Counted from the first letter of the stretch, positions 24,771 to 30,473 are shown. The stretch: DNA of 64,000 nucleotides from Candidatus Omnitrophota bacterium (GCA_903860135.1 CAIOPG010000009.1:37916-101915), one strand, 5' to 3'. The notes: a model not told the origin generated them from the letters alone. Translations and numbers: made by a program.

Positions 24771-26357
24771 TCAATCCCCTACGTGTTCTCTATTATCCTT
24801 ATAATTTCGATCAGAGGAAACTCTATAAACAGAGTACCTTTCACCGTCGGACATCACCTGTTGAAAAACCTTCATCAGAACAACATGGTCAAAGCTTAGC
24901 TCTTTCCGACTCATATCAAGATGTAAGAATTTCTGAACAGGCCCCTTAGAATGCAATACTAAATAGGCAAAACGGCCATTTAAAATGTCAGCTGTTACCT
25001 TTTTCTTAATGTTTAAATTGTGATTAAATTCATGAAAATTCGTAAAGACATAATAGTTCGGTGAAATACCGCTAATAAGAGCAATGGGCTGAATATGGCA
25101 CATAAAAATATCATCATCCACCAACACCAGCCCTCGTCTGTCCCAAGCCATTGTTTTTAAAAACTCACCGACAGCTTTATGATCAACATAACTTGCTTCA
25201 TTAGAAAACATATCCGGCATTGTATGCTGGTGATCATAAAAAATATAGGAAAAGCCGGACAGCAAGAATATAAGTGCTAACAGAAAAAGAAAACTCATTC
25301 GAAAGAATGATGCAACAGTATCAATAAAAAATACCGCGTAAGGGATCAAAAATATTCCCAATAAAATACTGTAACGCGAAAATAGCATCAAATGTCCCGA
25401 AGATGAAGAAATTGAAAAAACAAAGAGCAAAACAAAAAAGAAAATAGCCAATACCGCCCCTCGCCGTAACCAAACCGCAAAGGCAATGCCGAACAAGCCC
25501 CCTAGCACGATCCCCGACCCTGAATTTTTCCAAAGAAGGATCAACCAACTATAAATCCTTGGGTCATAGAACGGGTTGGCTGATCTAACACTCTCCGATC
25601 CCATCGTCGCTGGATGGCTGAAAGAATAGAAAGCATTATGAAAATATAATTGACTTAACCAAAGATGACTGCCCGGAGCTATTAATAATAAAAACAAGAA
25701 CAGCAGTGACATTTTTTTATTTATTTTCCATAGAAGAATAAACAAACAAGGTATAAAAACCCAAGATTCATACCTTAAAACTGATGCTATATTAAAAAAT
25801 AGCGCAGAAAGAAAAAGATATGAAAGCTTGCCGCTAACATCTTTGAACCGGAAAAAATAGTAAAATGAACAAAAAATAAAAAAATAATACACGGCATCTG
25901 ATGTCGTTGTACTGCTTTGAACGATATGTAAAGGATAACAAACAAGCAGTAGACTTGAAATGAACGCGACCCTTTGATTGAACAGGATCTTTACCGTTCC
26001 ATAAAATGGGAGAATAAGAAAAACACCAAATAAAAGTGAAAAAACCTTTGGTGCCAAGATCGGATCACGCCAAAAGAACAAGAAAGACGCCATAAAATAT
26101 TTGTATAACGTCGAACAAGCCGGTACAAAATTACGCTGTAAACCAGGAGCCTCAAGTATGCGCAGCGACTCCACTACGTGCCCCGCAGCATCGCCGACAA
26201 TATTATGACGATAATTGAAAAGAAAAGTCAGACGGAGAATGCCAGCTAGAATGATCAAACTAATGATCTGGATCATTTCACTCTTTAACCATGTTAAAAC
26301 ACGCCGCATACTTAATCCTGACAAGCCTTTTCGAAGCGTGTCTGTGCGTATTATCAT
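24771..26357 (-). CDS. polytopic membrane glycosyltransferase, GT-C fold (ArnT/PMT-like)
   Basis: About 12 TM helices. Low GC. 4-nt overlap with the upstream gene. Confidence 0.45.
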   Translation of the reverse strand: MIIRTDTLRKGLSGLSMRRVLTWLKSEMIQIISLIILAGILRLTFLFNYRHNIVGDAAGHVVESLRILEAPGLQRNFVPACSTLYKYFMASFLFFWRDPILAPKVFSLLFGVFLILPFYGTVKILFNQRVAFISSLLLVCYPLHIVQSSTTTSDAVYYFFIFCSFYYFFRFKDVSGKLSYLFLSALFFNIASVLRYESWVFIPCLFILLWKINKKMSLLFLFLLLIAPGSHLWLSQLYFHNAFYSFSHPATMGSESVRSANPFYDPRIYSWLILLWKNSGSGIVLGGLFGIAFAVWLRRGAVLAIFFFVLLFVFSISSSSGHLMLFSRYSILLGIFLIPYAVFFIDTVASFFRMSFLFLLALIFLLSGFSYIFYDHQHTMPDMFSNEASYVDHKAVGEFLKTMAWDRRGLVLVDDDIFMCHIQPIALISGISPNYYVFTNFHEFNHNLNIKKKVTADILNGRFAYLVLHSKGPVQKFLHLDMSRKELSFDHVVLMKVFQQVMSDGERYSVYRVSSDRNYKDNREHVGD

Positions 26358-27973
26358 TGGATCAACTCCAATAATGACAAATTATAGGCAAACTGATGTT
26401 TTATAAGCACACTTGACCAGACATAATTTCCCGAAGAACCTGGACTATTATTGTGTTCAAGCTTGTCTGTTAACAGATAAAGTCTATCTGATTTGCATTT
26501 GTCATTAGAAAACCGTCCAGTTTCATGAGCGTCGACAATTATAATCCTAGGAAGTCCAAGATTAAAAAGAAACAGCAAGCCATTGTGAAGACCATTGTTT
26601 GAAATATCAATAAGGAGCGTTTGTTTATTGGTTGACGCGTGTGGATCCATTTCAAAAATATAATTAATTTGATCTGTGATTAGGAATAAAGAATTTGCCG
26701 GCATAGCAGACCACAACGGCGCATATAACCAAAGTTTTGGGATATTATGTGCCTTCATCTTGCCGAATTGATCGCTGAAAAAATATTGTTTTGGGAATGG
26801 GTATGAAGTTAAAAATAAGGAATATTGTAAAACGATCAGTATTGAAATAAGGGATAGAAGCGCACGACGTACAAGTTTCTTTTGGATAAAGTACACGCCT
26901 GTAGCTGTAACGATAGCCCAGTAGACGCACAAGGGAATGATGTAGGCAAAATCCTTCTTTACAATAAGTATCAAACCCGTTAATGGTACAAGAATAGCTG
27001 TCCCAAGGATTTGTTTGTGGATGTTTGTAGAACGCCAAATTAAAAAAATGGATCCGATAGCCAGAAAGAAAATGAACCAATAGCCAAGTAATATTTCTGT
27101 CAAAGATACAAAATAATACGTAAGGTGTACGAAAATAAATTTCGGGTTACTGACAACCATCTTATACGAATCCCAAACAGATGAACAGTCTCCTATTGAA
27201 GAAAATAGAATTGCTCGCGCCTGCGAAGACCAAAGATTTGTTGTTACCCATCTTTGATAAAACGGCCAAACAGAAATCAGAACAACCACTAAAGTAAGAA
27301 ACATAAAGAACAGGGATCTCTTGCGCTTGTAGTTTTCCGGAACAAGGAACAAAGCAAATATATAAAACCCAGCAGTTACGCGATCAGCGTATAGTCCCAG
27401 GATCATAAAAGCCCCTACCAGCATGCTTTCCAAAAAACGTGTGAAGAAGTATGAACGAAGGTACCAATAGAAGGCTACAACAACGCAAGCCGCTACAAAT
27501 AATTGGCTTTCAACAGAAACTGACAACATCCGGATAATCCAGTAACTTGAGAAAATAATAGCCGCCAACATGCTATAAAATCTGCTGTTGATCAAGAATT
27601 TCGTGGAAAAATAAACTCCGGACATGGCCAAAAATAAATAAAAGATATTAGTTAAGAAGAACCATTTAATAGTAAACAAGAATAATACACAAACATACAT
27701 CATCGGTACCAAGACAGGCCAATATGATCCGACTCCTTGCGTGAGGTTATGATCCCAAGGAAAATGGATAAAAGCACTAACCCAATCAGTCTTTGTGTTG
27801 GCGATCTGATGGTATGCTGAAGAAATATCAAGCATATAGACAAAGCAGTTATTAAACGTAAAAATAAAGTTTTTATCACACCAGAGCTTGGCCAAGGTCA
27901 GATTGATCAAAAGGACAACACCGAATAATATTAATACGGAGTATTTCTTTACGATGGTGAACGCTTTATGCAT
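26354..27973 (-). CDS. polytopic membrane protein, GT-C-like glycosyltransferase
   Basis: ATG at 27973 (MHKAFTIV). More than 12 TM helices. Low GC. Confidence 0.45.
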   Translation of the reverse strand: MHKAFTIVKKYSVLILFGVVLLINLTLAKLWCDKNFIFTFNNCFVYMLDISSAYHQIANTKTDWVSAFIHFPWDHNLTQGVGSYWPVLVPMMYVCVLFLFTIKWFFLTNIFYLFLAMSGVYFSTKFLINSRFYSMLAAIIFSSYWIIRMLSVSVESQLFVAACVVVAFYWYLRSYFFTRFLESMLVGAFMILGLYADRVTAGFYIFALFLVPENYKRKRSLFFMFLTLVVVLISVWPFYQRWVTTNLWSSQARAILFSSIGDCSSVWDSYKMVVSNPKFIFVHLTYYFVSLTEILLGYWFIFFLAIGSIFLIWRSTNIHKQILGTAILVPLTGLILIVKKDFAYIIPLCVYWAIVTATGVYFIQKKLVRRALLSLISILIVLQYSLFLTSYPFPKQYFFSDQFGKMKAHNIPKLWLYAPLWSAMPANSLFLITDQINYIFEMDPHASTNKQTLLIDISNNGLHNGLLFLFNLGLPRIIIVDAHETGRFSNDKCKSDRLYLLTDKLEHNNSPGSSGNYVWSSVLIKHQFAYNLSLLELIQ

Positions 27974-29836: not shown

Positions 29837-30473
29837 CCAGATCGCCCACAGCTTTCAGTTTAAGACGCAACCTTCGCACATGTGTGTCGACCGTCCGCGT
29901 GTAAACATCCGCGTCGATGCCCCATACATCATTTAATAGGACTTCACGTGACTGGATACGGCCCGGACGCCCCATCAACAGTGCTAGCAGTTTAAACTCC
30001 ATGGCTGTCAGCACAACTTCCACGCCATCGACCGTGACCCGGTGCCGCCCCTTGTCAAGGATCAACGCCCCGGCTTTAAGGACATCCACATCTTCCACCG
30101 CTATCCGGCGTCGAAGGATCGCTTTCACGCGCAAGACAAGCTCACGCGGGCTAAATGGTTTGACCATGTAATCCTCGGCCCCTAATTCCAACCCCACGAT
30201 CCGATCGACCTCTTCACCTTTGGCTGTCAGCATGATCACCGGCACATCGGTCAGATCGGTATCTTTGCGCATCCGGCGGCAAACCTCCAGACCGTCAACC
30301 CCTGGCAGCATCACATCCAAGATCACCAGATCAAACCCCTTGCGCCCAAGCAGGGCCAAAGCATCCTCACCGGAGGCCGCGGTTTCACAGGAAAAACCCG
30401 CCTTGTCCAGGTTATACTGGATCAGCCGGGCAATATCTTTTTCATCTTCAACGATCAATATTTTTTTAGTCAT
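29784..30473 (-). CDS. OmpR-family response regulator, PhoB-like
   Basis: ATG at 30473 (MTKKILIVEDE). REC domain plus winged-helix (GYRF). Confidence 0.8.
   Translation of the reverse strand: MTKKILIVEDEKDIARLIQYNLDKAGFSCETAASGEDALALLGRKGFDLVILDVMLPGVDGLEVCRRMRKDTDLTDVPVIMLTAKGEEVDRIVGLELGAEDYMVKPFSPRELVLRVKAILRRRIAVEDVDVLKAGALILDKGRHRVTVDGVEVVLTAMEFKLLALLMGRPGRIQSREVLLNDVWGIDADVYTRTVDTHVRRLRLKLKAVGDLVETVIGAGYRFRQDHEN

Follow-up and report, generated by a model that had tools for sequence, protein, structure and literature searches.

We analyzed a 64,000-nucleotide (nt) stretch of DNA from a Candidatus Omnitrophota bacterium, referred to below as the window and numbered from its first letter, in which four minus-strand genes lie in one direction: a phoB-type response regulator (29784–30473), a phoR-type histidine kinase (28022–29836), and two genes for many-helix membrane proteins, MP2 (26354–27973) and GT1 (24771–26357). 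The predicted products of the latter two are a divergent protein of the C-type glycosyltransferase (GT-C) fold with 539 amino acids (aa) and a 528-aa GT-C glycosyltransferase, respectively. MP2 and GT1 overlap by 4 nt (ATGA). The N-termini of homologues favor the ATG at 27973 as the start of MP2, which places it 48 nt (27974–28021) after the kinase stop codon (28022–28024); an alternative ATG at 27994 would lengthen the protein to 546 aa and shorten the gap to 27 nt. At the other end, the stop codons of GT1 and of the convergent dusB gene (23795–24769, plus strand; TIGR00737, 328 bits against a cut-off of 293) are 1 nt apart. An earlier interpretation of this DNA, made from the nucleotides alone (the sequence-only reading), had described two genes on the same strand as the kinase, overlapping by 4 nt and beginning 48 nt after its stop, and the open reading frame (ORF) coordinates bear out this layout.

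The block at 24771–27973 is compositionally foreign, and its boundaries are sharp. The G+C fraction (GC) in a sliding window is 0.36–0.39 over 24750–28000 and 0.49–0.54 on either side, with abrupt edges at both gene ends. Gene by gene, GC is 0.376 for GT1 and 0.372 for MP2 versus 0.51–0.52 for the neighbors, including dusB (0.52), which forms the downstream edge of the low-GC block. Expected values for GC and for GC at third codon positions (GC3) were derived from the amino-acid composition of each gene together with the window's own synonymous codon preferences. Amino-acid composition alone predicts a GC of 0.437 for GT1 and 0.424 for MP2, with ∼0.50 for the neighbors; about half of the drop is thus an effect of the hydrophobic composition of membrane proteins, and the remainder is codon choice. 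Indeed, GC3 is 0.366 in GT1 against 0.522 expected (∼7 binomial standard deviations, SD) and 0.398 in MP2 against 0.532 expected (∼6 SD). The AT-richness asserted in the sequence-only reading is therefore real, and codon usage, which that reading had said would count against a foreign origin if it were uniform with that of the neighbors, is not uniform, GC3 being 6–7 SD low. The homologues of the pair in L001 and L003 have a GC that is normal for their own genomes and show no dip relative to their neighbors. Direct or inverted flanking repeats were considered as island boundaries and rejected, as only short repeats at chance level are present, and Rfam and tRNA scans of the window gave no match.

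The linkage of phoR, MP2, and GT1 is found only in the window strain and in L002, whose DNA is ∼96% identical and whose gene order is phoR, MP2, GT1, and convergent dusB. Between these two strains the nucleotide identity is 94.8% and 97.6% in the island and 94–98% in the flanks; since island and flanks have diverged alike, the pair predates the split of the two strains. The ORFs of the pair are intact in both strains, with ratios of nonsynonymous to synonymous polymorphism (pN/pS) of 0.31 and 0.43 compared with 0.02–0.12 in neighboring genes, a pattern of substitutions indicating that MP2 and GT1 are functional and less constrained than their neighbors. Lower constraint is common in surface-structure genes. 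In the more distant L006 and L007 (kinase 81% identical, GnnA 90–93% identical), phoBR and the divergent gnnA and lpxB genes upstream of it are kept, other genes follow phoR, and MP2, GT1, and dusB are absent there. The comparison has only the phoR-side flank in common and hence provides no clean empty site. The 3′ end of phoR is a synteny breakpoint whose content varies between lineages. In L007, an ACR3-type transporter (Pfam SBF) and an ArsC-like low-molecular-weight phosphatase (4533–6146 of that locus) are inserted between gnnA and phoB, and DUF6290 and SNF2 helicase genes, together with further ORFs (9038–13168), are inserted between phoR and the gene that follows a candidate Pho box; phoBR is flanked on either side by an insertion hot spot. 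According to a recent preprint (10.64898/2026.06.07.730766), the mobile, hypervariable cargo of Omnitrophota genomes includes glycosyltransferases for lipopolysaccharide (LPS) and capsule.

The low GC might also have arisen without horizontal transfer, from hydrophobic content combined with AT drift of resident glycan genes that are weakly constrained and weakly expressed. Consistent with drift, amino-acid composition accounts for about half of the GC drop, the pN/pS values are 3–10 times those of the neighbors and point to relaxed constraint, integrase, tRNA, or repeat boundaries are lacking, and all homologues come from Omnitrophota, so that any transfer would have been within the phylum. 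However, GC3 lies 13–16 points (6–7 SD) under expectation, homologous genes of other Omnitrophota show no GC dip, the GC edges match the ends of the cassette exactly, and the cassette is missing from the site in relatives with an 81% identical kinase. We regard drift as unlikely. The horizontal acquisition proposed in the sequence-only reading is supported, in that the low GC is partly synonymous, is not shared by the homologues, and belongs to a pair that relatives lack at this site, a pattern in keeping with lineage-specific acquisition or relocation. As a separate observation, a second low-GC gene is located at 21874–22332 on the minus strand (152 aa, GC 0.34, GC3 0.29, no family match); it is only 79% identical to its counterpart in L002, its neighbors being 95–99% identical, and its pN/pS is 0.30.

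Enzymes with the GT-C fold (Pfam clan CL0111) work at the outer face of the inner membrane, where an acceptor receives a sugar that had been linked to polyprenyl phosphate. GT1 matches Pfam PMT_2 (PF13231) with 39.2 bits against a gathering cut-off of 26.1. An AlphaFold 2 model of GT1 (20 sequences; predicted local distance difference test score, pLDDT, of 72) has ∼13 helices and a C-terminal α/β domain, and a Foldseek search with this model returns STT3, ALG12, and ArnT with E values of 1e-6 to 1e-4 and template-modeling scores of 0.55–0.60, as well as AglB and PglB. The first loop of GT1 contains the motif D61-A-A-G-H65, and D61xxxH65 is kept in most, though not all, of the family (19 GT1 homologues, mostly from Omnitrophota). 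The first-loop Asp (as D, DD, or DE) has been described as indispensable for GT-C catalysis (PMC7801869). On the basis of fold and motif, GT1 is a probable catalytic transferase that would use a polyprenyl-phosphate sugar donor at the periplasmic face.

MP2 is more elusive, with no match in Pfam (PMT_2 included, E ≤ 1e-3), NCBIfam, PADLOC, or the sequences of the PDB. A word-indexed search finds four homologues only, and a profile search of 1.8 billion representatives finds about a dozen full-length family members and ∼130 remote matches. PMT_2 is carried by 36 of the 40 remote relatives tested, and this family profile is the sole link of MP2 to PMT_2. The AlphaFold model of MP2 (23 sequences; pLDDT 82.7, predicted template-modeling score 0.86) consists of many helices and a C-terminal α/β domain, and its second-best structural match is ArnT. 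According to the models, then, both proteins have the GT-C fold, with a many-helix membrane domain followed by a soluble extracytoplasmic domain. The sequence-only description of a pair of GT-C membrane glycosyltransferases holds at the level of the fold, as judged from PMT_2, Foldseek, the structure models, and the remote relatives of MP2. The family profiles of GT1 and MP2 find nothing among PDB sequences at E ≤ 1, and neither protein matches any NCBIfam model, ArnT included, at E ≤ 1e-3. Recent paralogy of GT1 and MP2 was rejected (BLASTP E 0.28, hhalign probability 1.2%), the two being relatives at the fold level only, and membership of the pair in a defense system was rejected because PADLOC gave no match.

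The two proteins differ at the first-loop motif. PMT_2-type remote relatives have [D/N][D/E/S]xxxH directly after the first transmembrane helix; in the MP2 family, the sequence alignment shows N-[N/S/T]-x-x-x-[F/Y] at this position, with neither acid nor His (N42...Y46 in the window protein). MP2 may thus be a second transferase whose active site is unusual, or else a partner that does no catalysis. A specific form of the latter is that MP2 is a catalytically dead GT-C paralogue that assists GT1 as a scaffold or by binding the acceptor. Loss of the first-loop Asp and His throughout the MP2 family, the Asp being the residue held to be indispensable (PMC7801869), is in keeping with such a role, as are the constant company of at least one canonical GT-C enzyme and the translational coupling of MP2 and GT1 in the window. 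On the other hand, MP2 retains invariant charged residues (E155, D197-R198, E213-N214, E293, and K339-K340-D341), it is under purifying selection, and 8 of 11 family members have an acid 6–7 positions downstream (D49 in MP2) that could replace the missing Asp, so we consider a dead enzyme possible but doubtful. The eukaryotic Pmt1-Pmt2 heterodimer, and bacterial GT39/PMT_2 proteins that resemble protein O-mannosyltransferases, offer a parallel with differences: sequence identity is ∼10% and MIR domains are not present here, and the acidic motif is kept in both Pmt1 and Pmt2, whereas MP2 lacks it.

All homologues of GT1 and MP2 come from Omnitrophota (Omnitrophica) assemblies or metagenome contigs. 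None of the ten other contexts of these homologues that we examined contains a two-component system. What recurs is a cluster of one to three PMT_2 GT-C genes, a radical-S-adenosylmethionine (SAM)/SPASM enzyme, an AsnB-like amidotransferase, a B12 radical-SAM enzyme, MP2, and a NodU-like carbamoyltransferase or a methyltransferase, which is seen in L001, L003, and L014 and on the contigs of P0002 and P0022. In L001, L014, and the P0022 contig, homologues of both GT1 and MP2 belong to a single cluster, and in L001 and L014 the order is GT1, radical SAM, AsnB, (B12 radical SAM), MP2. The B12 radical-SAM enzyme of the cluster is distantly HpnJ- or BchE-like, and the best NCBIfam match of the AsnB-like protein, below threshold, is the XrtA/PEP-CTERM exopolysaccharide amidotransferase. 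The surroundings frequently include GDSL/SGNH-TPR proteins, GT4 and GT2 enzymes, and sugar epimerases. A metagenome scan for MP2 loci yielded three short contigs only, with neighbors of radical-SAM and AsnB size and a two-component system in none of the three. GT1 and MP2 are probably partner genes of a surface-glycan cluster specific to Omnitrophota. Since the pair occurs here without the radical-SAM, AsnB, and carbamoyltransferase genes, the window would have just the two membrane components of a larger glycan pathway, placed side by side.

The kinase encoded upstream of the pair has the Pfam order of transmembrane helix, sCache-like domain, transmembrane helix, HAMP, PAS, HisKA, and HATPase, and its true start is probably an ATG near 29800, giving 592 aa. 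Among NCBIfam models it scores 425 bits with PnpS (cut-off 400) and 314 bits with phoR_proteo, below the cut-off of 334. The OmpR/PhoB-type regulator, whose start was taken as the ATG at 30473, carries a receiver and a Trans_reg_C domain, and its best NCBIfam match is PhoB (TIGR02154) with 256 bits, below the cut-off of 296. Orthologues of the kinase (∼590 aa) occur throughout the phylum, with >50% identity among the 120 matches listed of 1,922 at E ≤ 1e-100, and nearly all matches that have a source name are from Omnitrophota. In all four distant loci (kinase 54–63% identical), the strand that encodes the regulator and kinase continues with Porin_5, PstS, PstC, PstA, and PstB, and PhoU comes next in each of the three loci long enough to show that position. 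Because porin-pstSCAB-phoU adjoins the orthologous regulator and kinase in 4/4 distant relatives, the two-component system is a genuine PhoB/PhoR of Omnitrophota, which confirms the PhoR/PhoB-like assignment of the sequence-only reading. The window shares with such loci not only the orthologous genes but also the upstream synteny of PIF1, an orphan regulator, lpxB, and gnnA, which L015 and the P0198 contig both keep. It differs behind phoR, where MP2 and GT1 occupy the slot of porin-pst-phoU and its Pho box; the window itself contains no pst genes.

The GnnA-like oxidoreductase gene and lpxB (30606–32647, plus strand) diverge from phoBR and belong to its conserved context, outside the glycosyltransferase cassette. 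The sequence-only reading had noted that lpxB (31514–32647) lies only ∼1 kb away. The distance is correct, as the gene starts 1041 nt beyond the regulator ATG at 30473, and the relevance to the glycosyltransferases is not: gnnA and lpxB also stand beside phoBR in L006, L007, L015, and the P0198 contig, so that the proximity is a conserved trait of phoBR that is unrelated to MP2 and GT1. The oxidoreductase gene itself (30606–31541), of the Gfo/Idh/MocA type, overlaps the lpxB start, forms one operon with lpxB, and is kept in all relatives examined. Its best match, UDP-N-acetylglucosamine 3-dehydrogenase, scores 253 bits, below the cut-off of 450, and hints at GnnA-type synthesis of a lipid A containing 2,3-diamino-2,3-dideoxyglucose.

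How the pair is transcribed depends on the junction with phoR. The sequence-only reading considered read-through from the two-component operon plausible, and named a terminator between 27973 and 28022 as an observation that would speak against it. No terminator-like site was found there; the RNA fold of the junction is no better than that of shuffled sequences (z −0.89), and the candidate intrinsic terminator, a G+C-rich run with T7 (GCGCCCGCTTTTTTT), was rejected because it has no complementary upstream arm. Given that no terminator is present, read-through is physically plausible. The 48-nt junction, in which GGGG stands 8 nt before the MP2 ATG, contains no promoter-like site in a scan for the sigma-70 consensus, which is perhaps not that of this phylum, and the same sigma-70-type scan finds no hexamer pair on the minus strand at 28022–28400. 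A likely phoBR promoter was identified by consensus scan at 30491–30520 on the minus strand (TTGACG, 18 nt, TAATAT, with a TG extension). Its −35 block (AATGnTTTTGACGGG) and −10 region are kept in L006 and L007, despite a different upstream gene in L007. Since the junction has neither a terminator nor a recognizable promoter, the pair would be transcribed as the tail of phoBR.

Alternatively, the pair could be expressed from a promoter of its own, in the 3′ end of phoR or of a non-sigma-70 type, in which case its adjacency to phoBR would be a neutral accident of genome compaction. Genes in this genome are packed very tightly (many overlaps, in addition to the GT1 and dusB stops 1 nt apart), phoBR has flanks that are prone to rearrangement, with insertions on both sides in L007 and other genes downstream in L006, and only sigma-70-type promoters were covered by the scan. 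Against this, a gap of 27–48 nt is too small to accommodate a promoter, which would have to lie in the coding sequence of phoR, and no hexamer pair is seen at 28022–28400 within that sequence, which leads us to rate a separate promoter as rather improbable.

In the distant relatives, porin-pstSCAB-phoU lies behind a candidate Pho box, GTTCACAcAAAGTTCACA, which is a 7+4+7 direct repeat (GTTCACA-cAAA-GTTCACA) with an 11-bp periodicity. The exact 18-mer is present in the pstS-pstC spacer of L015 and just after phoR in L016, each with a kinase 56–60% identical to that of the window, and copies with 1–3 mismatches are found at equivalent spacers of L015 and L017. A variant, GTTAACAAnnATTTCACA, is located 24 nt after phoR in L006 and behind the 4.7-kb insertion in L007, and precedes the same secreted protein in both. 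All seven sites (L015 7795–7812 and 10285–10302; L016 7810–7827; L017 7817–7834 and 8646–8663; L006 3351–3368; L007 13512–13529) are intergenic and on the gene strand, either following phoR or within the porin-pst operon. Five of six relatives have the box just downstream of phoR; in the sixth, L007, the distance is 4.7 kb. From position and sequence, we infer that this repeat is the Pho box of the clade. Allowing ≤3 mismatches, the clade-derived box GTTCACAnnnnGTTCACA has 5 matches in the window against 5.4 expected, none of them at 27974–28400 or 30474–30605. The E. coli-type box CTGTCATnnnnCTGTCAT was rejected, having 7 matches in the window against 5.0 expected and none near the junction. 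The Pho-box search upstream of 27973 that the sequence-only reading had recommended thus comes up empty at the junction, in the phoR 3′ end, and upstream of phoB. No candidate box is present upstream of phoB in L015–L017 either; phoBR is therefore probably not auto-induced through it, and read-through would not be phosphate-inducible.

These results bear on the model put forward in the sequence-only reading, in which PhoR/PhoB would raise MP2 and GT1 under phosphate limitation and periplasmic glycosylation would remodel the envelope, by analogy with PmrAB-ArnT. PhoPR-driven synthesis of teichuronic acid in Bacillus is a further analogy for such a model. The model draws on the common strand, the 48-nt gap with neither terminator nor separate promoter, the genuine PhoBR identity of the system, a slot that holds Pho-box-driven genes in five of six relatives, and ArnT as the second-best structural match of MP2. 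However, the link occurs in a single species-level lineage and is not conserved, other contexts of GT1 and MP2 lack a two-component system, Pho-box matches in the window are at chance level with none at the sites where control would act, phoB in L015–L017 has no box that would make read-through inducible, and there is no ArnT family match and no arn gene. We consider control of envelope glycosylation by the two-component system improbable as it stands. A bolder version, in which a GT-C module of one canonical enzyme and one partner without the first-loop Asp and His was captured into the phoBR tail so that surface glycosylation is co-regulated with phosphate signaling, and in which the two proteins form a heteromer whose degenerate subunit contributes acceptor or donor binding instead of catalysis, would be very unlikely.

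In Enterobacteria, ArnT (GT83) carries out lipid A aminoarabinosylation under PmrAB/PhoPQ, where the regulator acts via a binding site at the arn promoter. The window pair resembles ArnT in fold only: arnBCADEF is not found in the 64 kb, nor is a synthase for a lipid-carrier sugar, the regulator is PhoB-type (158 bits with the PmrA model against a cut-off of 330), a regulator binding site is not detectable, and the adjacency is not conserved, which leaves the PmrAB-ArnT analogy unsupported. Another likeness is to GtrA/GtrB/GtrC-type systems and to the three-component periplasmic glycan modification by a polyprenyl-phosphoribose synthase, a MATE flippase, and a GT136 GT-C enzyme (PMC11127046). 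In these systems, a GT-C protein acts outside the cytoplasm and decorates completed surface glycans with side-chain sugars, and the genes are accessory, strain-variable, often compositionally atypical, and horizontally mobile. They differ from the window, which has two GT-C proteins instead of one and neither a carrier-sugar synthase nor a flippase within 64 kb.

Taken together, the reading we favor, and hold to be somewhat probable, is that a foreign two-gene GT-C cassette has come to occupy the ancestral pst slot behind phoBR and is most likely transcribed as the phoBR tail. Two genes for GT-C-fold membrane glycosyltransferases would have been fused into one translationally coupled unit, which took the slot directly behind phoB-phoR that is held in deeper relatives by the Pho-box-driven porin-pstSCAB-phoU. 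The pair would be transcribed from the conserved promoter at 30491–30520 as the end of the phoBR message, giving basal co-expression with phoBR and no switch-on by phosphate limitation. In this unit, GT1 would be the catalytic transferase, and MP2, with Asn for Asp, may be a partner whose catalysis is atypical or absent; the acceptor could be LPS, another glycan, or a protein. Most likely the pair is an ordinary cassette of surface-sugar genes that was relocated recently.

Several observations weigh against this explanation. The best non-self homologues are 40–49% identical and lie on contigs of GC 0.46–0.51; the search for a donor of the low GC found every homologue-bearing contig in this range, and thus no low-GC donor lineage. 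Marks of mobility were also sought, and there is no mobility gene or recombinase beside the pair, no tRNA in the window, and no flanking repeat. Gain in the window lineage, as opposed to loss in L006 and L007, is polarized by composition and by the deeper pst arrangement only. Genes for donor synthesis (a GT2 polyprenyl-phosphate sugar synthase), a flippase, and the cytoplasmic enzymes of the cluster are not in the 64-kb window. An internal promoter may exist in the phoR 3′ end or in the AT-rich DNA, since promoters of this phylum may differ from the sigma-70 consensus. The candidate Pho box derives from 7 sites in 5 genomes only, and the Asn-for-Asp replacement in MP2 is a sequence-alignment call, with the semi-conserved acidic residue D49 seven residues further on.

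Other features of the window lie apart from the cassette. A plus-strand gene at 14034–14885 encodes a 283-aa protein that matches the Pfam viral coat protein P2 (P2_C E 9e-15, P2_N E 3.5e-13), the double jelly-roll capsid protein of PM2-like tailless phages. It is surrounded at ∼8500–17800 by small plus-strand ORFs, mostly with no family, and this region may be an integrated tailless prophage. On the minus strand, an uninterrupted ORF of 6816 aa spans 43518–63968 and is preceded by a PilZ-domain gene (43066–43434); Omnitrophota are reported to encode giant proteins. Directly between the giant gene and a PIF1-like helicase gene, the minus strand carries at 34852–42688 a complete operon for a V/A-type ATPase, with subunits I, C, E, A, B, and D.

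The cells of the Omnitrophota, a phylum not yet cultivated, are small and may live attached to hosts. Chiefly of use for annotation, the analysis identifies their phylum-wide PhoB/PhoR and proposes a Pho-box consensus for the phylum. It also reveals MP2 as a small GT-C family that current Pfam and NCBIfam models miss, and one whose members keep company with canonical GT-C enzymes in a recurring glycan cluster of radical-SAM, amidotransferase, and carbamoyltransferase genes. MP2 is a new, unmodeled subfamily within a known fold, found here at a lineage-specific position. If the pair were truly co-regulated by the Pho system, it would be an example of phosphate-linked remodeling of surface glycans in Omnitrophota.

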